Positions 11,144-36,082 of a stretch of DNA of 64,000 nucleotides are shown here, one piece after another (the first letter of the stretch is position 1; every line of letters starts with the position of its first letter). The stretch spans positions 1-64,000 of the IMG/VR virus record IMGVR_UViG_3300047476_000639. One strand, 5' to 3'. The notes beneath the pieces were generated by a model. It worked only from the letters and a program-made list of their open reading frames with translations. It did no database searches and had not been told where the DNA came from. Made by a program: the position numbers and the translations under genes. The DNA comes from a virus.

Positions 11144-11551
11144 ATGCTCATGTGGTACTACAACGACAAAGAAATTGGTGATGATGATATCGAAGGCTAT
11201 GTGTCCTTTGTGTATCGCATCACCAATCTAGAAAATGGAAAACAATACATTGGTAAAAAGAACTTCACGAAAGTCCGAAGCAAAAAAGTCAAAGGCAAAA
11301 CGCGAAGAAAAAGAGTCAAAAGTGAAAGCGACTGGCGAGAATACTTTGGTTCAAACCTCACACTTCTTGGAGACGTTGAGAAACTGGGACGAGACGGATT
11401 CAAAAGAGAAATCTTGAAGCTCTGCAAGTCTAAAGGCACAGCGAACTACTGGGAAGCTTGGTATCAAATGAATGAGAAAGTTTTAGAATCCGATACGTAT
11501 TACAATGATTGGATAATGGTCAAAGTTCACAGGTCGCATATCAAAGAATAA
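11144..11551 (+). CDS. GIY-YIG-like nuclease domain protein
   Basis: GYVSFVYRITNLENGKQYIGKK fits the GIY-x(10)-YIG module. Confidence 0.5.
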   Translation: MLMWYYNDKEIGDDDIEGYVSFVYRITNLENGKQYIGKKNFTKVRSKKVKGKTRRKRVKSESDWREYFGSNLTLLGDVEKLGRDGFKREILKLCKSKGTANYWEAWYQMNEKVLESDTYYNDWIMVKVHRSHIKE

Positions 11552-11613
11552 CGCGACACTCTGTCATGCTGCATTGCACAATGCAAAATACTATATATTA
11601 GTGACAATCAGAC

Positions 11614-11811
11614 ATGACAGAAAGGAGTCCTACCATGATCGCATGGGGAAGAGCATTACAGAATATGATGTGTTTTAGAGATACGGAGAGCGGCCTAGTT
11701 CGTATGTTCAGAACTGAATACTCTAAGGAATATCAGCATCTGCGAAAGCAGGGCACAGATATTGATGATAGCTTTGTGAGAACATTCTTGGAATTGAAAA
11801 AGCAGTCCTAA
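11614..11811 (+). CDS. hypothetical small protein
   Basis: ORF with aaggag-like RBS (gaaaggagtcc). Confidence 0.35.
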   Translation: MTERSPTMIAWGRALQNMMCFRDTESGLVRMFRTEYSKEYQHLRKQGTDIDDSFVRTFLELKKQS

Positions 11812-11840
11812 CCAATACTAGAAGTTGTATTCTATGGTAA

Positions 11841-11875
11841 ATGGCAGAAATTCAGTTTTCTGCCATTTTTTGTTT
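11841..11875 (+). terminator. rho-independent terminator
   Basis: 10-bp stem ATGGCAGAAA / TTTCTGCCAT, loop ttcagt, then TTTTTGTTT. Confidence 0.6.
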
Positions 11876-11903
11876 GACATTCATTTCCGTATCCTTTATA
11901 AAT
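11874..11903 (+). promoter_or_regulatory. sigma70-like promoter, TTGACA - 17 nt - TATAAAT
   Basis: Consensus -35 and -10 elements just downstream of the terminator and upstream of the GC-rich gene. Confidence 0.5.
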
Positions 11904-11932
11904 GTCTTTGTAACAACGAAAGAGGTTCTCGA

Positions 11933-12202
11933 ATGTCTTACGTGATCTACAACACCGAAACGACCCGTCTCGCCGGTGGCTCCTTCAACTACAAAGTTTA
12001 CCCGACTGAGCGTGGAGCTAAGATTGCTCTCGCCCGTCTTGAAAACAAGTCTGACTTTGCTATCGCTGAGATCAACCACTTCTACGCAAACATTGAGAAG
12101 AAAGAGACGAAGCGCAACATGATGAGTGGAAAAGAGTTCACTCAGGGTGTGAACACTCCTCTGTGCTGTGATCCGTCTTCTGAAACTTACTGGAGCATGT
12201 GA
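11933..12202 (+). CDS. hypothetical protein in a GC-rich island with host-like codon usage
   Basis: ATG with aaagagg RBS; strong third-position C/G bias unlike neighbouring genes. Confidence 0.5.
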   Translation: MSYVIYNTETTRLAGGSFNYKVYPTERGAKIALARLENKSDFAIAEINHFYANIEKKETKRNMMSGKEFTQGVNTPLCCDPSSETYWSM

Positions 12203-12308
12203 GAATGAAAAAGCGAAACTTTGTCGCGAAATCTTTGTGGTCGCCAAAGTTTCGCAAACAAGTTATAAAGTCTAAGAAGGTTTATTCTCGCAAGGAGAAA
12301 CATAGAAG

Positions 12309-12494
12309 ATGGGCTTAAAGACTTACACATATTACAACGAGATTCCGAAGCTATTGCAGGATTATGTTCTGGTGGTTTCTGGTGCGCGAAACATTCTTGA
12401 GATTGATCTTGATGATATCAATCTGTTTCTCTCTGAGATGGATCAGTTTTGTCGCAAAGAACCTGAACATGAACAGGATGGTTGGGCAGTTTAG
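12309..12494 (+). CDS. hypothetical small protein
   Basis: ORF with aaggaga RBS. Confidence 0.35.
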   Translation: MGLKTYTYYNEIPKLLQDYVLVVSGARNILEIDLDDINLFLSEMDQFCRKEPEHEQDGWAV

Positions 12495-12859
12495 TGGCTA
12501 TTATCTACACACATAATCGATCAGCTAAGAAAAAGCCGTCAAAGAAGACGTTGCGTCTTAGAGAAGAGCGTTCTGCATATTTTGCATCTATAAAGAATAC
12601 TGTAGATGCACCTGATCGTTCGATGTATTTACCGGCACCACTGGTTAAGAAGTCGCTTCCGCCTTTATCTAATTCTGTTGGAAATGGCTTCAAGCGGTCT
12701 GTTGAAGACTATAAATGGAAGCGTGACCGAGAAGAATCCGTTGCCACTGCTAAAGCGATTGAAGAAAAGAAGAAGCGCCTGGCTCCGTCATTCAACAAGG
12801 GTCCTGTTCAGTACATCACTGATGGTGCTGACGTTGAAACACTAGGGAGAAAAATGTGA
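12482..12859 (+). CDS. hypothetical basic protein
   Basis: ORF overlapping the upstream gene. Confidence 0.4.
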   Translation: MGSLVAIIYTHNRSAKKKPSKKTLRLREERSAYFASIKNTVDAPDRSMYLPAPLVKKSLPPLSNSVGNGFKRSVEDYKWKRDREESVATAKAIEEKKKRLAPSFNKGPVQYITDGADVETLGRKM

Positions 12860-13053
12860 TGATTAGAGAAGAGCATAAAGCATATCATTCTGATGTTCAG
12901 AAGATCATTGACAGACTGCAAAAAATTCAAGATATTTTTGCTTCTGAGCATATTGAAGATGCAATGAGAATGTTGGTTATCCAATCGTGGGAAATCAAAG
13001 CGCACCGCGACCCCGTGAGCCGCGACACTTGGGAAAAATTTGAAGGAAAGTAA
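12856..13053 (+). CDS. hypothetical small protein
   Basis: ATGA overlap with the upstream stop. Confidence 0.35.
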   Translation: MMIREEHKAYHSDVQKIIDRLQKIQDIFASEHIEDAMRMLVIQSWEIKAHRDPVSRDTWEKFEGK

Positions 13054-13054
13054 A

Positions 13055-13495
13055 ATGAACAAGGTTATCGTTTTTGACATTGATGGCACTCTTGCGAACA
13101 TTGAGCATCGCAGAGCTTTTGTCGCAACGAAGCCAAAGAACTGGAAAGCATTCACTGCGGGTATCCCAAATGATACTCCGCATGAAGAGATTGTGTGGCT
13201 TACTCGCGCACTATTCACTCACAATACCACTGTCGTTCTTTGCTCTGGTCGTGGTGAGGAACAACGTGAAGTGACCGAAAAGCAGATGAAGGACTTTGGT
13301 GTGACTTTCGACAAGCTATTCATGAGGCCCGCAAAGGATCATCGGCCTGATGATATCATCAAGGTTGAACTGCTTCAGCAGATCCGTAAGGAGTTTGGTG
13401 AGCCGTTTCTGTGGTTTGATGACCGTACGCGGGTAGTTAATGCAATCCGTGCCGAAGGCGTTCGTGTCCTTCAGGTGGCACCAGGAGATTTCTGA
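13055..13495 (+). CDS. pnk: polynucleotide 3'-phosphatase (HAD family), homologous to the C-terminal half of T4 Pnk
   Basis: HAD motif I VFDIDGTLA; C-terminal WFDDRTRVVNAIRAEGVRVLQVAPGDF closely matches T4 Pnk [26 protein letters not shown]; ATG with gaaggaaag RBS (the track start is TTG). Confidence 0.75.
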   Translation: MNKVIVFDIDGTLANIEHRRAFVATKPKNWKAFTAGIPNDTPHEEIVWLTRALFTHNTTVVLCSGRGEEQREVTEKQMKDFGVTFDKLFMRPAKDHRPDDIIKVELLQQIRKEFGEPFLWFDDRTRVVNAIRAEGVRVLQVAPGDF

Positions 13496-13577
13496 TGGAA
13501 TTTTTAGTGATCATCGTCATTTTTCTCCTGTGTGCTGTTTTAGATAAGTTGAATAACTTAGAAAAGTTGGTAAAGAA

Positions 13578-13796
13578 ATGATCACGAAAGAAAACTTCGG
13601 CGGTATTGCTGTTGCCGATTTGCTTGTGATGACAGGCCTTGCAAAAAGCAAATCTGAAGCAAGACGCGGTATACAACAAGGCGCCGTTCGTATGAATGAT
13701 AGAAAGATTACTGATCCAACTATGCGTGTCGGTTGGTTGAAGAAAGATGATGGCACGTTTGAAGTTTGGTCATTGGAGGAAAGTAATGAAGTATGA
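13578..13796 (+). CDS. stand-alone S4-fold RNA-binding protein resembling the TyrRS C-terminal tRNA-binding domain
   Basis: LAKSKSEARRGIQQGAVRMNDRKITDP matches the TyrRS C-terminal / S4 consensus (SxxEARRlIqqGgVrvNgekvtDp). Confidence 0.55.
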   Translation: MITKENFGGIAVADLLVMTGLAKSKSEARRGIQQGAVRMNDRKITDPTMRVGWLKKDDGTFEVWSLEESNEV

Positions 13797-14976
13797 ATTT
13801 CCTAACATATTACACATAGATGATGTGTTACCGCACATTAAGGACTCTCCTGAGTTCATCCATGCTGTGAAGGATGGCTATACCGTAATCAACTACGTTG
13901 TGGCTGGTCACGATACTTTTCCTGATGTTGAACAGTCGCCTGAACTTGAATTTGATATTCTTGCCCAGCGCAATGCTCTTCGTCGTGAGTGTCGCGGTCT
14001 TGTGTTTGACTCTGAAACTGGTGAACTGATCAATCGTCGGTATCACAAGTTCTTCAATGTGAACGAGCGTGATGAGACTTTGCTGGACAAGATTGACTGG
14101 TCTAAGCCTCACATTATTCTTGAGAAGCTTGACGGCTCAATGGTATCTCCTTGCCGAGTGCGTAACCACATTCGTTGGATGACCAAGATGGGCGTTACTG
14201 ACACTTCCATGGAAGCAGAAGCATTTGTGGCTAAGAACCCAAAGTATGCTCTTGTTGCTCGGATGGCATATGATCGTGATCTGACTTTGATCTTTGAATG
14301 GTGTTCTAACAAGAACCGTATCGTACTGGACTATCCTGATGATCGTCTTGTGCTTACTGCTGTTCGGTTCAACGATAATGGTAAGTACATGCCATATGAT
14401 GAACTGAAGCAACTCGCGGCTGGGTTTGATATCCCTCTTGTTCAGGCGTGGGACTCTCGTATCACACATGATGTTCTTACCAAGATTGTTCGTCAATCTG
14501 AGAACATTGAAGGTGTGGTTGTTCGGTTTGATGACGGCCACATGGTCAAGATCAAGTCGGACTGGTATGTCCGTATTCACAAGGTCAAGTCTATGCTTGG
14601 TCAGGAACGTGATGTTGTAGAACTGATACTGAAGAACGAATTGGATGATATGCTTCCTGTCCTTCCAAAAGAAGACGTTGAGCGAGTGGAAAAGTTCCGT
14701 GTGAAGATGGAAGAGAGACTTCGCGCCGATGCTTACGTTCTGGATCAGACTATTCGTTACACCCGTTCTGGAATGGATCGGAAGTCTTTTGCATTAGAAG
14801 CAGCACCTAACATCTCTCCTGTGATTCGTGGTATGATCTTCCAGTTTTGGGACAAGGAATGTAACGAACACTTGACTTATCAGGCCATTGTTGCTACAAT
14901 ACTCAAGAACTGTGGCAATAACGGTTCCTACGCAAAGGTCAAGGAAGCGTTTCTAAAGGATGTTAACTATGTCTAG
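13786..14976 (+). CDS. rnlA: RNA ligase 1 (T4 RnlA-like)
   Basis: Nucleotidyltransferase motif [12 protein letters not shown] (T4 ILTKEDGSLVS); [23 protein letters not shown] versus T4 [23 protein letters not shown]. Confidence 0.85.
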   Translation: [396 protein letters not shown]

Positions 14977-15457
14977 GCCGAAATTGTGGATGCTTGTCGG
15001 AGTCCCTGGCTCCGGCAAGTCTACTTGGATAAACAGTGGTATTGTCGGATCTGGTGTCTATGTGGCATCTACCGATAATATCATTGAAGGTCTTGCTCAG
15101 ATTGCCGGAAAGACCTATGATGAAATGTTTAAGTCTTCTATCAAGTATGCTGAAAAGACAATGTATGTGAATGTCATGGATGCTGTGAAGCGAGATATGA
15201 CTATTATCTGGGATCAAACCAATCTTACTTTTAAGTCTCGCGCTAAAAAGTTGATTATGATTCCTGATCATTATATGAAAATTGCCGTTTTATTTCCTAC
15301 TCCTCAAGAAAAAGAGTTGCAAAGGCGACTTAGTTCTCGGTCGGGCAAGACTATTCCTGAGCATGTGATTGCTTCGATGACTGACACGATGGAAGTTCCT
15401 ATGCTTGCAGAAGGTTTCGATGAGGTGCGTGTCGCAGATTTTATGGAGAATGTATAA
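14960..15457 (+). CDS. pnk: polynucleotide 5'-kinase (P-loop), homologous to the N-terminal half of T4 Pnk
   Basis: Walker A MLVGVPGSGKSTW versus T4 LTIGCPGSGKSTW; WDQTNL resembles T4 SDTNL. Confidence 0.65.
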   Translation: MLTMSRPKLWMLVGVPGSGKSTWINSGIVGSGVYVASTDNIIEGLAQIAGKTYDEMFKSSIKYAEKTMYVNVMDAVKRDMTIIWDQTNLTFKSRAKKLIMIPDHYMKIAVLFPTPQEKELQRRLSSRSGKTIPEHVIASMTDTMEVPMLAEGFDEVRVADFMENV

Positions 15458-15690
15458 TGAGTAATCCCTTTGATGCTCTTCACGCTGCTCTTGCTTCTGC
15501 GGAGCACCGTGACATGCCTGATGTTGAATATGAAACCCGAGATTGGTCTGCGTTCAACAATCTTTCAAGTGAAGAAAAGAAAGAGTTTAGTAAAAACGTT
15601 CCTGACTTTCTAAAGATCAAGAAGATTCGTCGCCCTTATGTTGGGGATCAACTGCTCTTGGATATCCTGGTATCGGCGGTTCTGCAATGA
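15457..15690 (+). CDS. hypothetical small protein
   Basis: ATGA overlap with the upstream stop. Confidence 0.35.
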   Translation: MSNPFDALHAALASAEHRDMPDVEYETRDWSAFNNLSSEEKKEFSKNVPDFLKIKKIRRPYVGDQLLLDILVSAVLQ

Positions 15691-15875
15691 CTGACGCATA
15701 TACTGTTGTTGTGTCTTATGGTGGCCGTCAGTTTTGTGTCTATTTTGGCTGTGGTGTTCTCGCATATAAGGTTGACTTGAACAAGATGGCACCCACTGGT
15801 CGTGCTGCATTCATGAGTGATCTTCGTGATCATTGTTTGGTTGATGTGCAAAAGGCTGCTACTCGTTATGTCTAA
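15687..15875 (+). CDS. hypothetical small protein
   Basis: ATGA overlap with the upstream stop. Confidence 0.35.
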   Translation: MTDAYTVVVSYGGRQFCVYFGCGVLAYKVDLNKMAPTGRAAFMSDLRDHCLVDVQKAATRYV

Positions 15876-16158
15876 TTGGGGTAGTGATGTTGAGGTTGAA
15901 CGGCGCAACCGCATCCGCTTGACCTTGGCTGCCTTTGCGTATGAGTTTGATGATAATCCTATCATGTCAGATGCAGAGTTTGATGAACTATCACAAAAGA
16001 TTAGACCTGATATTAAAACAGGTATGAAGAAACATGATGAGTTCTTTCGAGAGCATTTCGATCCAAACACAGGCATGTGGATTCGTCAGCATCCGTTTCT
16101 TCGCAAGGTAGAACATACATATCGTTGGTTCCTAAGTAAAGGATATTACAACAAATGA
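15868..16158 (+). CDS. small protein resembling NAD-dependent DNA ligase domain Ia
   Basis: TLAAFAYEFDDNPIMSDAEFDELSQKI resembles the LigA Ia motif AAxAYYvlDxPxiSDAEYDxL; ATGTCTAA overlap with the upstream stop. Confidence 0.4.
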   Translation: MSNWGSDVEVERRNRIRLTLAAFAYEFDDNPIMSDAEFDELSQKIRPDIKTGMKKHDEFFREHFDPNTGMWIRQHPFLRKVEHTYRWFLSKGYYNK

Positions 16159-16364
16159 ACGAACAACTGTATCAAGATACCGATGTGAGGGTGATAGATC
16201 AGCGTATTGGTATGGGTATCGGTGGTCTCAATACAGTCATTCGGCTGTATCATAAGCCAACTGGTATTCTTATTGAGATGCCAAGGTTGAATAGAAGTCA
16301 ATATTACGATAAAGTGTTGGCGTTTGAGATGTTAGAATATGCATTGTTGGGAGTGAAGGAATGA
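16155..16364 (+). CDS. hypothetical small protein
   Basis: Overlapping start and stop. Confidence 0.35.
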   Translation: MNEQLYQDTDVRVIDQRIGMGIGGLNTVIRLYHKPTGILIEMPRLNRSQYYDKVLAFEMLEYALLGVKE

Positions 16365-16506
16365 AAAAGTTTACAGTACACTACACAATCGGCGCATATC
16401 ATTATGAGTCGACCGTCAATACTTCAAGTTCTGGAGCAGCATTGTTCTGGATTGAAGCTATCGGCGGATATAACGGCTATGTCGTAAAAGAAGAGGAACT
16501 AGAATG
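16361..16506 (+). CDS. hypothetical 48-aa protein (not in the ORF track)
   Basis: ATG after gaagga RBS; ATGA overlaps on both sides fill the gap between tracked ORFs. Confidence 0.3.
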
Positions 16507-16710
16507 ATGTCTTTTGTATTTGATCATGAGATGATACATAAAGCATTACTCGCCAACGGTTGGTACAATCATTGGCATCCAGATAACTGGGTCCATCAAA
16601 TGGATAGTAATCCTGATTGGAGTGGAGTTAACATGAAGACGGCATTTGAAAGACTGCTTAAATCTAAGAACCTAATTCCTGCAAACGTCAATGATTGTTG
16701 GCAATCATGA
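16504..16710 (+). CDS. hypothetical small protein
   Basis: ORF with overlap. Confidence 0.35.
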   Translation: MMSFVFDHEMIHKALLANGWYNHWHPDNWVHQMDSNPDWSGVNMKTAFERLLKSKNLIPANVNDCWQS

Positions 16711-16907
16711 AAACACTGAGTGAATATAATGCTGAGTGGTCTGAGAAGAATAAGAAACTTGGTCGTCATGAAAAGTGGATTGCTCTCGCATGTGATCATT
16801 GTGGACATGAACTTGCAGGTGAAAACATTTTGCTAATGTCTAGTCCGCCGCAGCAAAACATTTATTGTCCGGGTTGTGGTTGGCAGGGTAGGAGATTTGT
16901 ATACTAA
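16695..16907 (+). CDS. small zinc-ribbon protein
   Basis: CDHCGHEL ... CPGCGWQ. Confidence 0.4.
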   Translation: MLAIMKTLSEYNAEWSEKNKKLGRHEKWIALACDHCGHELAGENILLMSSPPQQNIYCPGCGWQGRRFVY

Positions 16908-17155
16908 TGAACAACAGACATAAGTGGAAGAATGAGCAGTTTCGAGCATTGCTTTGGAAAGCCAGCATCGGTTACAATGATAGTTGGTCACAGGTTGATC
17001 CTGAAGTCCTTGAAAAGTTTGCTGAGTTGATTGTCGTAGATTGTTTGATTGAGATTGAACGTCTTGGCATTCGTAATGGTGATACGGAACATAACAGAGC
17101 ATTAGGTGCTGCATGGAAAGCAATCTCTGAAAAATTTGGTGTAACAGAAACATGA
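16907..17155 (+). CDS. hypothetical small protein
   Basis: TAATGA overlap. Confidence 0.35.
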   Translation: MNNRHKWKNEQFRALLWKASIGYNDSWSQVDPEVLEKFAELIVVDCLIEIERLGIRNGDTEHNRALGAAWKAISEKFGVTET

Positions 17156-17829
17156 AGTTCGGAATCTTTTCAGACCTGCACATGGAGTTTCAACCGTGGT
17201 TCTTTGAGCCTGATCCTGATGTGTTCTATTTGAATGCTGGTGATACTCATCCGCAGAAATTGACGCGCGATTACTTCTATTCGCTATTCAAAGATAAACT
17301 TTTTTCAGTGCCAGGTAATCACGACTACTACGGTAACTCGTTTGCCAATGCCGATATGGACTTTCCAGATCCAGTTTTCTTAGCAAAACCTGATGGCAGC
17401 ACCATCACTATCGCCGGCGCCACTCTTTGGACTGACATCTCTCCCGTTCGTTGGTGGGATTTCAAAGAGTATATGATGGACTATCGCAACATCAAAGGTA
17501 TGAACTATGATCGTTACATGAATGCACACAAGACGCATCATGACTATCTGTTCAATGCAGGTGCCGATATTTGGGTTATACATCATCTACCATCTTATCA
17601 GTCGGTGCATGAAGAGTATCGTCACTCTAACGGTAATGATTTCTTTGCTACTGAACTTGCGCCGAAGATCCTTGAAATGAAGAAGCCGCCAAAGCTGATC
17701 GTTCACGGACACACACATAAGCAGTGTGACTATATGATTGGCGAGACTAGGGTGATTTGTCATCCGCGCGGGTATCCGGGTGAGAATGATTGGTATCAGA
17801 ACTATCAGCCGTTGATTGTAGAGGTGTAA
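17152..17829 (+). CDS. calcineurin-like metallophosphoesterase
   Basis: Metal-ligand motifs GDTHP, GNHDYYG, HGHTH. Confidence 0.65.
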   Translation: MKFGIFSDLHMEFQPWFFEPDPDVFYLNAGDTHPQKLTRDYFYSLFKDKLFSVPGNHDYYGNSFANADMDFPDPVFLAKPDGSTITIAGATLWTDISPVRWWDFKEYMMDYRNIKGMNYDRYMNAHKTHHDYLFNAGADIWVIHHLPSYQSVHEEYRHSNGNDFFATELAPKILEMKKPPKLIVHGHTHKQCDYMIGETRVICHPRGYPGENDWYQNYQPLIVEV

Positions 17830-18071
17830 TGATGTTAGAAATAGACTGGGAAGACATCGCAAGATTTCTGTTTGATCTGCTAGATGATATTGACACCGCA
17901 TCGGATATTGCAAAGTCTGATGATAAGTTATATCGTGAGTACGTGGAGAAGTTACATCGTCGTAGATTTGAAGTTGCCGACACAGATGGTTATGAGGTAA
18001 TATTCAAGGATAGAGTAAATGAACAGGAATCAATTCTAAACACAACCAAGACAATTTTTTTTCGAGGTTGA
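17829..18071 (+). CDS. hypothetical acidic protein
   Basis: TAATG overlap with the upstream stop. Confidence 0.35.
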   Translation: MMLEIDWEDIARFLFDLLDDIDTASDIAKSDDKLYREYVEKLHRRRFEVADTDGYEVIFKDRVNEQESILNTTKTIFFRG

Positions 18072-18095
18072 CAACAAATCGCTTCCGTGTATACT
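18068..18095 (+). promoter_or_regulatory. sigma70-like promoter, TTGACA - 16 nt - TATACT, followed by conserved ATATACACATACT
   Basis: Near-consensus hexamers; the same downstream 13-mer recurs at the 20246 promoter. Confidence 0.5.
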
Positions 18096-18486
18096 ATATA
18101 CACATACTCGATTAAGGATAGTTTACAGCAATGATCTATGGATCAGTTGGTTCGATTCCAACATTTGTCGCAATGCGGCGAATACAAATACTATCCTGTT
18201 GAATTCCTGAAAAGGAGACACTATAATATACTAACGTGCTTTGGGATCAGTTCCGCAAACAATCTTTGCTCCATGAATGCAAAAAAGATGATCCCGCTGA
18301 CTTTTAGAATGTGTACAGCAACAACTTAAAAAGCTGAAAGACCTTCGGGTCACAGTGAGTTTCGATTTCTCACCAAAATCAAAAAGTAGGAACACATTCT
18401 GTTGATTTTAGATTCAGTTCCGCAAACTAAAAAAATCAAACTTTGAATTTGACAAAAAGATGAATCTGTAGAAAAGGAAAAGTGAA

Positions 18487-19923
18487 ATGAACTCTTTTGT
18501 AAATGCTATCGCTAACCAAGAAGCTCGTACTGAAAACGGTATGAAGGCTCTTGCATCTACCACAAGCAAGAACGTTGATCTGTTCTTCAAGATCGGTGCT
18601 TCGCGTGGTAAAGATATTACTGCCGACTTTACCAGCGCATATGTTGAAGATCGTGACACTGCGCTTCGTATTGCACAGTGGGCCCGCGATATCCGTGGTG
18701 GTGCTGGTGAACGTAAGCTATTTCATGACATTATCAACAATCTCATCAACTCTGATGAAGCTGCTGCAATAGCACTGCTTCGCAAGGCTCCTGATCTTGG
18801 TCGTTGGGATGATGTTTTGGTGGCCATCGGCGCGCAGGGTGCAGTTGGTGATGCCGCTGTATCGATGATCAAGTCTTCACTCGACAAGGGTGATGGTCTG
18901 TGTGCGAAGTGGATGCCACGTAAGGGCGCTCTTGCAGCAACTCTTCGTGAGAAGCTTGGATGGACTCCGAAGTATTATCGTAAGCGTCTTGTAGAACTGA
19001 CAAAGGTTGTTGAAACACAGATGTGTGCTAATGATTGGGACAACATCAATTTCAACCACGTTCCTTCTGTTGCTTCTGCTCGTTACAAGAAGGCGTTCAA
19101 GCGTCACACTGCAAAGTATGCTGAGTGGACTACAAAGCTCGTTTCTACTGATCCTTCTGTTCGTGCAGAAGTAAAGGTAAATGCTGGTGCTGTGTATCCT
19201 TATGATGTAATCAAGGGTTTGTCTGCTTATGGCATCAACTATGATAAGTCTAACCTTGATCATATCGTTGCACAGTGGGAAGCTTTGCCTAACTTCGTTG
19301 GTGATGCATCTATTCTACCAATCGTAGACGTTTCTGGTTCAATGGCCTGCAAGGCCGGCGGGTATCAGTCTAAGAGCATGACTACTTGCTTGGATGTCTC
19401 TGTGTCGCTTGGTCTTTACCTTGCAGATAAGAACAAGGGTGTATTTAAGGATACATTCTTGACCTTCTCTACTAAGCCACAGCTTGTTACTCTCAAGGGC
19501 AACATCGTTCAGAAGATCGAACAGATGATCCGCGTTGACTGGGAGATGGACACCAATCTACATGCTGCAATCAAGAAGATCCTTGATGTGGCTATTAAGG
19601 GTAAAGTTCCTCAGTCTGATATGCCAAAGATGCTGCTGATCCTCTCAGACATGCAGTTCAATGGTTGCGTTGAGTATGATGACAGCGCGATTGAAATGAT
19701 CCGCCGTAAGTATACTGATGCCGGCTATGAAATGCCGAAGGTCGTGTTCTGGAACCTGAACGCACATGAAAATGTGCCTGTTAAGGAGAACGAGAACGGA
19801 GTTGCTCTGGTATCTGGCTTCTCGCCATCTATCGTGAAGAGCGTTCTCGCTGCCGATCTATCCGGTTTCACTCCAGAAGCCATCATGCGTAAGACCATCA
19901 TGGTCGAGCGTTACGACTACTAA
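18487..19923 (+). CDS. vWA-like (possibly DUF2828-type) domain protein
   Basis: MIDAS-like VDVSGSM; about 480 aa; long 5' leader upstream. Confidence 0.45.
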   Translation: MNSFVNAIANQEARTENGMKALASTTSKNVDLFFKIGASRGKDITADFTSAYVEDRDTALRIAQWARDIRGGAGERKLFHDIINNLINSDEAAAIALLRKAPDLGRWDDVLVAIGAQGAVGDAAVSMIKSSLDKGDGLCAKWMPRKGALAATLREKLGWTPKYYRKRLVELTKVVETQMCANDWDNINFNHVPSVASARYKKAFKRHTAKYAEWTTKLVSTDPSVRAEVKVNAGAVYPYDVIKGLSAYGINYDKSNLDHIVAQWEALPNFVGDASILPIVDVSGSMACKAGGYQSKSMTTCLDVSVSLGLYLADKNKGVFKDTFLTFSTKPQLVTLKGNIVQKIEQMIRVDWEMDTNLHAAIKKILDVAIKGKVPQSDMPKMLLILSDMQFNGCVEYDDSAIEMIRRKYTDAGYEMPKVVFWNLNAHENVPVKENENGVALVSGFSPSIVKSVLAADLSGFTPEAIMRKTIMVERYDY

Positions 19924-34836: not shown

Positions 34837-35466
34837 ATGAAAAGATATGTGATTGGTGATGTGCATGGTTGCTATGATGAACTGTGCGAACTGTTTGAGA
34901 AGATTGAGAAGCACCACGGCGGTTATGACTACAAGCTGATTTTTGTTGGTGACTATGTTGATCGTGGACCAAAATCAAAAGATGTTGTAGACTTCATTAT
35001 GAAGATGCAGAAGCGCGGCCATGTAGCTCTCATGGGCAATCATGAAGATATGCTTATCGCTGGTGAATACATGTATGCTGCTGAAACAATTGTCAGCTTT
35101 GGTGGTTTTCGCGGCCATTATATACCCGATTGGGCAATGAATTGGATGAAGGCACTGCCAAAGTATTATGAAGATGATACAATCATTGTGGCTCATGCTG
35201 GTGCTAATCCTGCATTTCCAATGAATGAACAAACAGATACTATGCTCTTGTGGTTACGATATCAGCCGCACCATAATGCACACATGGGTAAGCATTTCTA
35301 TCACGGACATACTCCACACATAGGTAAGATTGAGCAAGCAGAGGATCGCACAAATGTAGATACTGGTTGTGTGTATGGCGGACATTTGACGGCCGCTATT
35401 GTAGGAGATGATGGCAAACCTGAAGGTTTCATTCAGGTGCCACACAAGAACAGTGCGTATGCATAA
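34837..35466 (+). CDS. Ser/Thr protein phosphatase, PPP family (lambda PPase-like)
   Basis: GDVHGC, GDYVDRG, GNHE motifs. Confidence 0.75.
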   Translation: MKRYVIGDVHGCYDELCELFEKIEKHHGGYDYKLIFVGDYVDRGPKSKDVVDFIMKMQKRGHVALMGNHEDMLIAGEYMYAAETIVSFGGFRGHYIPDWAMNWMKALPKYYEDDTIIVAHAGANPAFPMNEQTDTMLLWLRYQPHHNAHMGKHFYHGHTPHIGKIEQAEDRTNVDTGCVYGGHLTAAIVGDDGKPEGFIQVPHKNSAYA

Positions 35467-35482
35467 AGCATATATACTGTAG

Positions 35483-35800
35483 TTATCGTTGAAGGAAAAC
35501 GAAAAACACTGAGGACTGGGGGGCGGTACCCCACGCCTCCACCACGAACACACTGAGAGTCTGACCAGCAGATCATGGTGAACTATGCAATGGGAATGTT
35601 CACTTGCTTGGTGTGTTCTTGATGGGGGCGAACTAGGATCGACTGAGTGTAGAATAGTTGACTGGAGATAACCGTAGGCGACTACGTACAAGCGCAAAAC
35701 TCTAAATGCAAACGATAACGTTCCTGCATATAAGGCTTACGCTCTAGCAGCGTGATACCTGTGGGTATGGCTCCACCTAGAAACAGAACGGGCCACTTTA
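35483..35800 (+). ncRNA. ssrA: permuted two-piece tmRNA (ssrA): acceptor piece ending ...CGCCUCCACCA, then intervening hairpin, then coding piece starting GGGGGCGAACUAGGAUCGAC with tag ORF (A)NDNVPAYKAYALAA-stop
   Basis: The 5' end matches the universal tmRNA start GGGGnnGAuucuGGAUUCGAC. Upstream, T-arm TGGGG-GGCGGTA-CCCCA is followed by CGCCTCC-ACCA, complementary to GGGGGCG with a G3-U70 wobble. cucuaaauGCAAACGAU... parallels the E. coli resume region; the tag ends ALAA. Confidence 0.6.
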
Positions 35801-35824
35801 ACACACATGACACAGGAGTATATC

Positions 35825-36082
35825 ATGTCAAAGACACCTTATGAACTACGTTATGAACTTCTTATGCTTGCTCAAAACATCCTCACAGAACAAATTATGA
35901 ATGAACGCATTCGTCTTGAGAATGATTGGAGTCTCGCAAGAGAGAAGGCCTCCATTCAGCTTTCTAATGGTGACACAAAGATTGATCTTCCACCTTTCCC
36001 CGAGGTACCTAAGATCAGTGAAGAGGCTATTATCAAGATGGCAGAAAAGCTTAATACATTTGTGTCTAAGAATGCCGAATAA
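35825..36082 (+). CDS. hypothetical protein
   Basis: ATG with caggag RBS. Confidence 0.4.
   Translation: MSKTPYELRYELLMLAQNILTEQIMNERIRLENDWSLAREKASIQLSNGDTKIDLPPFPEVPKISEEAIIKMAEKLNTFVSKNAE

Follow-up and report, generated by a model that had tools for sequence, protein, structure and literature searches.

In phage T4, tRNA repair by Pnkp (PseT) and Rnl1 (RnlA/gp63) counters the anticodon nuclease PrrC. T4 Pnkp is a fused, tetrameric enzyme, a single polypeptide with the kinase at its N-terminus, and T4 Rnl1 has a tRNA-specificity domain of its own. Such heal-and-seal enzymes are one of the two tools seen as phage answers to tRNA-cleaving defences, the other being spare tRNA genes. Kinase and phosphatase are also fused in the bacterial Pnkp1-Rnl-Hen1 system (Capnocytophaga gingivalis, 4XRP), which includes in addition the Hen1 methyltransferase. 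A split version, with a separate phosphatase gene and an Rnl1 that is directly followed by a kinase gene, is carried by cultured alphaproteobacterial phages: the Roseobacter phage DSS3P8, the Ruegeria phages V10 and RpAliso, the Rhodobacter phage RcXuper and the Caulobacter phage Cr30. Isolated RNA-binding domains of aminoacyl-tRNA synthetase origin form another point of comparison. The C-terminal domain of tyrosyl-tRNA synthetase (TyrRS) is a tRNA-binding module. Jumbo phages encode a solo protein made of the KTSC domain of LysRS, proposed to act in phage translation or ribosome rescue (PMC7824862).

Layout of the locus

The locus studied here belongs to a T4-like uncultured myovirus. It lies in a window of 64,000 nt (the whole stretch of DNA analysed, positions 1 to 64,000 of IMG/VR record IMGVR_UViG_3300047476_000639) and covers positions 13055-15457, where all ORFs are on the + strand, run in the same direction and overlap translationally:

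13055..13495, + strand: separate 3'-phosphatase of the HAD family, a homologue of the T4 Pnkp C-terminal domain
13495..13581, + strand: small hydrophobic ORF of 28 aa that overlaps both neighbours and has homologues in two related contigs
13578..13796, + strand: solo S4 (alpha-L) RNA-binding protein of 72 aa, most like the tRNA-binding C-domain of TyrRS from bacteria
13786..14976, + strand: Rnl1-type ATP-dependent RNA ligase (RNA_lig_T4_1, phrog_562, T4 Rnl1 structures)
14969..15457, + strand: separate P-loop kinase belonging to the polynucleotide-kinase clade (AAA_33, phrog_505); 165 aa if translation begins at 14960 instead

The preliminary description of this DNA had recognized a cassette of phosphatase, S4 protein, ligase and kinase. 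These four ORFs exist where it placed them on the + strand, and their domain assignments are upheld by Pfam and, for the three enzymes, by PHROGs; the cassette is less complete in that account, which overlooked the 28-aa ORF filling the gap between the phosphatase and S4 genes. The genes are linked by overlapping stop and start codons and by the GGAGG ribosome-binding site of the ligase, which lies in the 3'-terminal part of the S4 gene. The 28-aa ORF (product MEFLVIIVIFLLCAVLDKLNNLEKLVKK) starts across the phosphatase stop (TGATG) and stops across the S4 start (ATGA). A homologue is found 3' of the phosphatase both in locus L006, with 26 of 28 residues identical, and in L039, where 7 codons differ synonymously and 12 non-synonymously. 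The ORF is missing where phosphatase and ligase abut (L004).

A scan of positions 11500-18500 singled out only a terminator-like hairpin upstream of the block (11839-11868), promoter-like sites being no commoner than in shuffled sequence. DNA from 12800 to 15800 has no near-identical match in the cultured-phage collection. The window contains neither tRNA genes nor a homologue of cRec (best tblastn E 0.45). The tmRNA mentioned in the preliminary description is real and lies at about 35437-35846; a weak RF-1-like ORF is also present in this phage.

The locus shares with T4 its three catalytic modules, the HAD 3'-phosphatase, the P-loop fold of a 5'-kinase and the Rnl1 ligase. Unlike in T4 Pnkp, kinase and phosphatase are not fused: their ORFs are separated by 1.5 kb, and the ligase gene lies in this interval. 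The locus further differs from T4 by an identity of only 28-30%, by a kinase without an equivalent of Arg38 and by the additional solo S4 and 28-aa ORFs. It is related to the bacterial Pnkp1-Rnl-Hen1 system by Pnkp1, which is the best structure match of the phosphatase and is matched by the kinase as well, and differs from it by the separation of kinase and phosphatase and because no Hen1 methyltransferase was seen here.

The repair enzymes and their relatives

The phosphatase matches the Pfam HAD_PNKP profile (E 8e-30, 104 bits for a cut-off of 27.6), the PHROG polynucleotide kinase families phrog_415 and phrog_505 (3e-38 and 2e-36) and, among known structures, Pnkp1 (4xrp, 9e-11) and T4 Pnkp (1ltq, 4e-7). 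It had been described as very close to the T4 Pnk C-terminus. This is true of the C-terminal end, which is near-identical (QVAPGDF here, QVASGDF in T4), and does not hold overall (30% identity over 152 aa, E 3e-14). Residue positions were taken from the BLAST alignment to the verified T4 sequence. The protein retains the DxDxT motif (D8/D10), R19, R66 of the SGR motif, the DDR motif and, in RPDDIIK, the two aspartates and the lysine. All residues essential in the T4 phosphatase according to the T4 literature (D165, D167, R176, R213, D254, K258 and D277/D278) thus have an aligned and conserved equivalent.

The ligase is recognized by the Pfam RNA_lig_T4_1 profile (E 1.3e-31, 110.6 bits, cut-off 28.3), by phrog_562 (8e-77) and by comparison with the T4 Rnl1 structures 2c5u and 5tt6 (3e-27). 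Its motifs I, III, IV and V align to 2c5u as EKLDGS, FEW, EGVVV and KIKSDWYV, and it shares with the T4 Rnl1 structures the signatures KxDG, FEW/FEF, EG(V/Y)V and KIKSDWYV. The identification as Rnl1 made in the preliminary description therefore stands, with a correction to the block quoted there: FKIKSDWYV is the T4 version and the present protein reads VKIKSDWYV. The full-length identity between this ligase and the RNA ligases annotated in alphaproteobacterial phages is 37-41%. With NCBIfam TIGR02308, the T4 RnlA equivalog, the ligase reaches 151 bits, under the curated cut-off of 242, and it is classed as a member of the Rnl1 family and not as an equivalog by the NCBI criterion. The match to the T4_Rnl1_C tRNA-specificity domain is weak (21 bits, E 4e-4, cut-off 27).

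The kinase matches Pfam AAA_33 (E 4.4e-19) and, among known structures, the Clostridium thermocellum Pnkp kinase (7e-5), PSTK, Pnkp1 and the T4 Pnk kinase domain. Similarity extends well beyond the P-loop, over positions 2-143 of phrog_505, the T4-type Pnk family (E 2e-14), with 28% identity to residues 3-143 of T4 Pnk. GVPGSGKST, D39 and R123/R127 align with T4 K15/S16, D35 and R122/R126. T4 Arg38 aligns with Ile/Glu within the motif STDNIIE (STDNFIE in the homologue of L008) and, since no Arg38 equivalent exists, the substrate of the kinase is deduced from its gene context. The ORF had been drawn from 14960; it does encode a polynucleotide-kinase-like protein, for which the ATG at 14969, preceded by an AAGGA Shine-Dalgarno sequence 8 nt upstream, is the more likely start. 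Taken together, the three enzymes support the earlier reading of a T4-type heal-and-seal set.

The cassette had also been presented as an unusual rearrangement. This view is contradicted by annotated cultured phages, in which a split phosphatase and an Rnl1 followed by a kinase are found (DSS3P8, RpAliso and Bacillus phage pW2); comparison shows that among the relatives of this phage a split phosphatase / Rnl1 / kinase layout is the rule. The best cultured matches to all three enzymes come from the alphaproteobacterial phages named above, with 38-48% identity for DSS3P8, V10 and RpAliso and, in Cr30, 40% for Rnl1 and 46% for the kinase. In DSS3P8, gp099 is a phosphatase only, gp105 the RNA ligase and gp106 the kinase; five other genes separate the phosphatase, some 1.9 kb upstream, from the pair. 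Cr30 carries an Rnl1-kinase pair, and a search of the 4 kb around its Rnl1 detected no phosphatase. More generally, kinase homologues of cultured phages adjoin an RNA ligase, and a kinase is present within the flanks taken in 24 of 38 Rnl1-centred loci, mostly directly 3' of the ligase. Gene order varies among these relatives (Rnl1-kinase-phosphatase in L027). The split enzyme cassette is simply another example of its kind and nothing new.

The S4 gene is the interesting part of the locus. It is absent from the cassettes of the alphaproteobacterial phages and, in an HMM search of the other loci, the present window was the only one of the 38 Rnl1-centred loci to carry it. In the nearest metagenomic relatives (phosphatase 80%, Rnl1 64-67% identical) the three enzyme genes abut without S4. 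Phosphatase and Rnl1 are adjacent in L004-L007 and L018, although L006 is also listed with a 60-aa ORF in the slot between them; in L008 this slot contains SGNH-like and AAA ATPase genes. A 65-aa ORF upstream of the present phosphatase was considered as the counterpart of the L006 60-aa ORF and rejected (BLASTP E 2.3). Comparison of these loci identifies the S4 gene as an apparent lineage-specific addition in a variable phosphatase-ligase slot.

The solo S4 protein and its family

The 72-aa, soluble-looking S4 protein matches two Pfam profiles above their cut-offs, SYY_C-terminal (E 2.7e-10, 40.4 bits, cut-off 27) and S4 (E 3.7e-9, 36.6 bits, cut-off 22.8), so that an RNA-binding fold is indeed found by profile search. 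Its proximity to the TyrRS C-terminal domain, proposed earlier, is borne out by Pfam, NCBIfam, PDB and Foldseek searches. TyrRS C-domains are its best PDB matches. The best NCBIfam match is tyrS (33 bits for a cut-off of 114), and at E<=0.1 the only models found were tyrS, uS4, uS4e and TlyA, with Hsp15 and RqcP absent. The AF2 model (pLDDT 82.6) includes two helices (12-18 and 25-33) and four strands, and according to this model the protein has an alpha-L fold, in which a small beta-sheet supports two helices, like the C-domains of TyrRS from Thermus thermophilus (1H3E/9SFQ) and Geobacillus (1JH3). Foldseek ranks S4 domains highest, those of uS4/uS9, IMP3 and TyrRS (probabilities of 0.95-1.0 in the top 20). 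The alignment with T. thermophilus TyrRS covers about 50 positions at 33-38% identity, with an E value of only about 0.1 due to the very small size of the domain. No viral look-alike was found among BFVD folds, where probabilities did not exceed 0.3 except for one low-ranked match of 19 columns.

Unlike TyrRS, the protein is free-standing, phage-encoded and without the catalytic or anticodon-helical domain: the ORF shows no match to tRNA-synt_1b, the class I catalytic domain (HIGH/KMSKS). The name 'tyrosyl-tRNA synthetase' given to it in the source database is a mis-annotation in view of its 72 aa and the tyrS score below cut-off. It is a real gene, given a dN/dS of about 0.16 with an ortholog at 54% identity. 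Like the KTSC-domain protein of jumbo phages it is a stand-alone RNA-binding domain of synthetase origin, with a different fold and a different parent synthetase; the searched text of PMC7824862 makes no mention of an S4 or TyrRS-derived solo domain.

A word-indexed search with the single S4 sequence returned only itself, and relatives were reached by a full HMMER scan. The resulting family (alignment A1, which includes the S4 of this window) comprises 266 profile hits at E<1e-5, mostly of 55-90 aa; the contigs on which it was found are all metagenomic and either viral or phage-like. Scanning viral contigs with alignment A3 gave no confirmed relative. The family is unmatched in the cultured-phage collection and in BFVD structures, and has no PHROG of its own. 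With three members as tblastn queries, matches to cultured phages were confined to 'Bacteriophage sp.' fecal scaffolds; the one inspected has a complete bacterial tyrS gene beside alaS, which indicates contamination and excludes it as a solo S4 carrier. A literature search for the S4 domain with tRNA repair or phage gave nothing relevant, the main RNA-repair survey being outside its scope, and the family is apparently undescribed.

The neighbourhoods of the family are informative. In 8 of 17 clusters the S4 gene is at most 100 nt from a tRNA gene, inside a phage tRNA array, compared with 21 of 725 background ORFs (2.9%), an enrichment that is to be read as rough because the background consists of raw ORFs from differently chosen loci. 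These arrays hold 4-28 tRNAs. S4 is the only ORF inside a tight array of 13 tRNAs in L067, and tRNAs flank it at 3 and 2 nt in L045. Three more clusters, this window included, adjoin tRNA-repair genes (Pnkp phosphatase, cRec), in the order S4-cRec-phosphatase in L039 and cRec-S4 in L063. In L054, phosphatase and cRec are 6.3 kb from S4. An operon association of cRec with RNA ligases is reported (PMC7824862, section 3.4.9). Five of the 17 clusters show neither a tRNA within 2 kb nor repair genes (L059, L068 and the L087 group) or are on contigs too short to reveal their context (L043, L044). The connection of S4 to tRNA put forward in the preliminary description is thus reinforced: the strong enrichment in tRNA arrays and the vicinity of repair genes make a tRNA-related role well supported for this family, tRNA binding itself being predicted. 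In three distinct lineages, the immediate neighbour of S4 is tRNA-Tyr.

Possible roles of the S4 protein

We consider that the locus is probably a split T4-style heal-and-seal block to which S4 was added as an accessory tRNA-handling factor and not as an obligatory enzyme subunit. By homology to T4 Pnkp, the phosphatase would remove the 2',3'-cyclic phosphate or 3'-phosphate that results from cleavage by a host anticodon nuclease and the P-loop kinase would phosphorylate the 5'-OH; the ligase, as a homologue of T4 Rnl1, would reseal the anticodon loop. The S4 protein would bind tRNA through the conserved basic surface of its fold (KSKSEARR...G..R.ND) and may hold, protect or present it. In this phage, the gene would have been placed in one expression unit with the repair enzymes. 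A point against this reading is that small accessory genes are known to accumulate both in tRNA arrays and in early-gene slots.

The preliminary description went further and saw in S4 a dedicated targeting subunit, joining phosphatase, ligase and kinase, delivering broken tRNA to them and replacing the scaffolding provided by T4 Pnkp. The position of S4 amid the enzyme genes, with stop and start codons that overlap, an ortholog again one gene from a phosphatase in a related phage, a further family member abutting cRec and the tRNA-binding nature of the TyrRS C-domain (1h3e and 9sfq are among the structure matches) are all consistent with such a subunit. It is nevertheless unlikely, as the nearest relatives have the same three enzymes with no S4 within 4 kb and variable genes in its slot, and most family members reside in tRNA arrays where no homologue of the Pnkp phosphatase, Rnl1 or kinase was detected within 8 kb. 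Moreover, S4 is 3' of the phosphatase here, 5' in L039 and 6 kb away in L054, and the tRNA-specificity domain that T4 Rnl1 possesses is matched, weakly, in the present ligase.

Conversely, S4 might be unrelated to repair, an accessory gene in a hypervariable slot acting as an mRNA-binding regulator or as a ribosome factor of the Hsp15/RqcP type. S4-fold proteins bind many kinds of RNA: ribosomal protein S4 regulates its own operon by binding mRNA, and Hsp15 and RqcP grip peptidyl-tRNA on stalled 50S subunits. The unrelated genes in the slot of L006 and L008 agree with this proposal, as do the tmRNA and weak RF-1-like ORF of this phage and, in L063, a gene with an RF-1 domain at a distance of some 4 kb from S4. 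We regard it as quite improbable, because TyrRS C-domains are the nearest relatives in all sequence searches, the Hsp15 and RqcP models are not among the NCBIfam matches, and the repeated location of S4 in tRNA arrays or beside cRec and phosphatase in independent lineages is hard to ascribe to chance. A cassette not devoted to tRNA, with Rnl1 in other RNA repair or in the tail-fibre attachment ascribed to T4 gp63 (phrog_562 is annotated 'RNA ligase and tail fiber protein attachment catalyst') and phosphatase and kinase acting on nucleotide ends or on DNA ends, also a substrate of T4 Pnkp, would fit a kinase without Arg38 but is highly implausible in view of the ligase-kinase adjacency and nearby phosphatase conserved across many phages, the retention of all ligase nucleotidyl-transfer motifs and essential phosphatase residues, and an added binding protein whose type suggests tRNA.

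Returning to S4 as an accessory tRNA-handling factor, a tentative extension is that the solo S4 proteins form a new class of phage tRNA-binding factors engaged in the conflict over tRNA integrity and co-expressed either with tRNA arrays or with heal-and-seal enzymes. Members of this class might shield the anticodon-stem/variable-arm region from host anticodon nucleases or hand over nicked tRNA to the repair enzymes, and tRNA-Tyr, given its adjacency to S4 in three lineages, could be a preferred target. If true, a synthetase-derived tRNA-binding protein occurring in both settings would constitute a third component linking tRNA genes and repair enzymes. It would also correct a recurring mis-annotation, such ORFs being labelled 'tyrosyl-tRNA synthetase' or 'ribosomal protein S4' in source databases.

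The repair enzymes and their layout

The cassette comprises five closely packed ORFs, all on the + strand, at window positions 13055-15457:

13055-13495, +, HAD phosphatase, 146 aa (Pfam HAD_PNKP 8e-30; PHROG 'polynucleotide kinase' families 3e-38 and 2e-36)
13495-13581, +, 28-aa hydrophobic ORF; start overlaps phosphatase stop (TGATG), stop overlaps S4 start (ATGA)
13578-13796, +, S4 protein, 72 aa (Pfam SYY_C-terminal 40.4 bits, S4 36.6 bits, both above threshold)
13786-14976, +, Rnl1 ligase (RNA_lig_T4_1 1.3e-31; phrog_562 8e-77)
14969-15457 (alternative start 14960), +, P-loop kinase (AAA_33 4e-19; phrog_505, T4-type Pnk, positions 2-143, 2e-14)

Apart from minor corrections, including the number of ORFs, profile matches and motifs bear out the genes noticed in the preliminary description. 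The solved structures nearest to the phosphatase are Pnkp1 of the Capnocytophaga RNA-repair complex and the T4 Pnkp phosphatase domain. Aligned to T4 Pnkp (reference sequence 100% identical to 1LTQ; 30% identity over 152 residues), it retains all essential T4 phosphatase residues. The ligase motifs KxDG, FEW, EGVVV and KIKSDWYV align with those of T4 Rnl1, and its ribosome-binding site, GGAGG, lies within the 3' end of the S4 gene. Solved relatives of the kinase are the kinase domains of C. thermocellum Pnkp and T4 Pnk, PSTK and Pnkp1. The P-loop, catalytic Asp and lid arginines are retained, whereas Arg38 of T4 Pnk has no equivalent. Homology and the conserved catalytic residues make a T4-like mode of action the most likely one for the enzymes: phosphatase and kinase would heal the 2',3'-cyclic-phosphate and 5'-OH ends made by an anticodon nuclease, and Rnl1 would then seal the break. 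The kinase substrate is the least secure step of this scheme.

The separate genes and their inverted order were originally taken for a rearrangement. However, the same split occurs in cultured phages and in the closest of 35 viral contigs obtained via Rnl1, and is therefore the standard state in this lineage. In Roseobacter phage DSS3P8, gp099, annotated 'polynucleotide kinase', is a phosphatase only, and the RNA ligase gp105 is directly followed by the kinase gp106. Rnl1 also precedes the kinase in Cr30, and the kinase abuts an RNA ligase in RpAliso, RcXuper, RHph_I1_18 and several Bacillus phages. The closest five contigs have Rnl1 64-67% and phosphatase about 80% identical to those of the window; four of them (loci L004, L005, L007 and L018) carry an abutting phosphatase, Rnl1 and kinase block. 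The order in L027 is Rnl1-kinase-phosphatase. The cassette thus belongs to a known, already annotated arrangement; the congruent repair components that Iyer et al. (PMC7824862, section 3.4.9) describe in large phages include kinases, HAD phosphatases and Rnl1/Rnl2. In two further loci (L031 and L036, 4001-5793) Rnl1 is matched in two segments, residues 1-205 and 207-388, separated by about 640 nt; the gap points to an insertion, for instance of an intron, intein or homing endonuclease.

The S4 protein, a lineage-specific addition

The S4 fold proposed for the 72-aa ORF is confirmed at profile level by both Pfam matches. Its best NCBIfam model is tyrS and the closest solved sequences are C-domains of tyrosyl-tRNA synthetase (TyrRS). 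The AlphaFold model (18 homologues, mean pLDDT 82.6) adopts an alpha-L S4 fold. Foldseek retrieves with it S4 domains of uS4/uS9, IMP3 and T. thermophilus TyrRS (probabilities 0.95-1.0 in the top 20); the small size of the domain keeps the E-values near 0.1. A dN/dS of about 0.16 against a 54%-identical ortholog indicates a genuine gene. The protein is no synthetase, and the source-database label 'tyrosyl-tRNA synthetase' is wrong.

Of the 38 other Rnl1-centred loci, none gave a match to the S4 family HMM. Between phosphatase and ligase there is no gene in L004, L005, L007 and L018; in this slot L006 has the small ORF and an unrelated 60-aa ORF, and L008 an SGNH-like gene and an AAA ATPase. 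This absence and the variable slot argue that the S4 gene is a lineage-specific addition. The gene for a SegE-like GIY-YIG homing endonuclease (Pfam 2e-36) is located at 11144-11551, 1.5 kb upstream of the cassette, consistent with an insertion-prone region. Three related phages have an ORF of 28-32 aa 3' of the phosphatase gene (window 13495-13581; L006 2809-2907; L039 1449-1538). Its product, hydrophobic in the N-terminal half and ending in a charged tail (MEFLVIIVIFLLCAVLDKLNNLEKLVKK), looks like a conserved single-pass membrane micro-protein.

Genomic context of the solo S4 family

An exhaustive HMMER scan returned 179 relatives (E<=1e-3) and a profile search 266 (E<1e-5), mostly stand-alone proteins of 55-90 aa sharing the basic core (G/K)(F/L)AKSKSEARRxIxxG(A/G)(I/V)(R/K)(I/L)ND.K(V/I)TDP. 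None was found in the cultured-phage collection, no member has a PHROG of its own, and no structural counterpart of the window protein was found in BFVD. We fetched 63 loci with an S4-like match, some contigs being fetched more than once, and searched each locus for tRNA and repair genes. Clustered at 70% identity, the stand-alone proteins (<150 aa) and the window copy form 17 clusters; L062 and L080, outside them, are one full-length tyrS gene on a single 572-kb contig.

Context of the 17 solo S4 clusters
tRNA gene within 100 nt, in arrays of 4-28 tRNAs: 8
In an array, nearest tRNA at 381 nt (L065): 1
Adjoining repair genes (window, L039 group, L063 group): 3
Phosphatase-cRec pair at 6.3 kb (L054 group): 1
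2 kb without tRNA, repair genes not detected (L059, L068 group, L087 group): 3
Context not assessable on a short contig (L043): 1

The contrast with the background is large, 21 of 725 ORFs (2.9%) being equally close to a tRNA in the Rnl1-centred loci, a rough estimate. Flanking tRNAs vary by lineage (among them Thr/Trp-S4-Tyr, His-S4-Tyr, Tyr-S4-Met, Phe-S4-Arg, Lys-S4-Ile, Cys-S4-Gly, Cys/Gln-S4-Arg/Gly). In L067 the S4 gene is the sole ORF inside a 13-tRNA array, and in L045 its neighbours lie at 3 and 2 nt. tRNA-Tyr(GTA) immediately adjoins the S4 gene, at 3-10 nt, in three sequence-distinct lineages:

L048, 7971-8242
L078, 209-436, and the tRNA after it
L045, 400-582, and the tRNA before it
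L066, 8001-8287

For a TyrRS-derived domain this adjacency is suggestive (rough binomial p about 0.03), and might reflect specificity or capture along with the tRNA.

The repair-linked orders are phosphatase-peptide-S4-Rnl1-kinase in the window, S4-cRec-phosphatase-peptide in L039-L042 (phosphatase about 76% identical to the window's) and cRec-S4 in L063/L064. Genes for cRec (PF20274), a phosphoesterase whose operon linkage to RNA ligases is reported in the same section of Iyer et al. (PMC7824862, section 3.4.9), lie directly beside a Pnkp-type phosphatase or solo S4 in relatives (L039 678-1016; L054 14897-15280; L063 7627-7992); none was found in the window.

The favoured reading makes the S4 protein an accessory tRNA-binding factor. 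The family's usual partners are phage tRNA genes; in the tRNA-poor window phage, the S4 gene would have become part of the repair operon. The preliminary description had suggested a substrate-targeting subunit. A tRNA-related role is supported by the tRNA arrays and repair neighbours, but an obligate targeting subunit is unsupported because the nearest relatives keep the same enzymes without S4 and, within 8 kb of most family members, no homologue of the Pnkp phosphatase, Rnl1 or the kinase could be detected. The protein may hold nicked tRNA, shield intact tRNA, aid array-transcript processing or have another role. The literature searched, which did not include the key survey of Burroughs & Aravind (2016), appears to contain no description of the solo S4 family or of its link to tRNA arrays and repair genes.

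Probable host and neighbouring genes

The window derives from an uncultured T4-like myovirus: it encodes T4-type baseplate wedge proteins and T4 RNase H, together with ThyX, ribonucleotide reductase and the SegE-like endonuclease. It carries no tRNA genes, and no near-identical DNA was found in the cultured-phage collection. Among cultured phages, those of Roseobacter, Ruegeria, Rhodobacter, Caulobacter and rhizobia give the best matches to all three enzymes. At 35437-35846 the window encodes a permuted (two-piece) tmRNA of alphaproteobacterial type (Rfam tmRNA_permuted 119 bits, alpha_tmRNA 88 bits; tag peptide ANDNVPAYKAYALAA). The tmRNA type and the enzyme matches indicate that the host is probably alphaproteobacterial.

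The NAD+-binding Ia domain of NAD-dependent DNA ligase (Nlig-Ia; 15817-16158, Pfam 4e-12) is encoded on its own 360 nt downstream of the kinase; solo Nlig-Ia proteins, possibly acting as NAD+ sensors, have been reported from 81 phages (PMC9503650). A 69-aa ORF (16155-16364) weakly resembles the RF-1 (peptidyl-tRNA hydrolase) domain, at a score below threshold (E 0.002), with GGL in place of the catalytic GGQ; L063 has a clear RF-1 domain gene at about 4 kb from its S4 gene. Further on are a calcineurin-like metallophosphoesterase (17152-17829) and, about 650 nt later, a 478-aa DUF2828+DUF7788 protein (18487-19923), an RNA-binding protein according to PHROGs (5e-136). This pair, which may belong to a wider RNA-maintenance island, also occurs in L065, a 145-kb relative with a solo S4 in its tRNA array.
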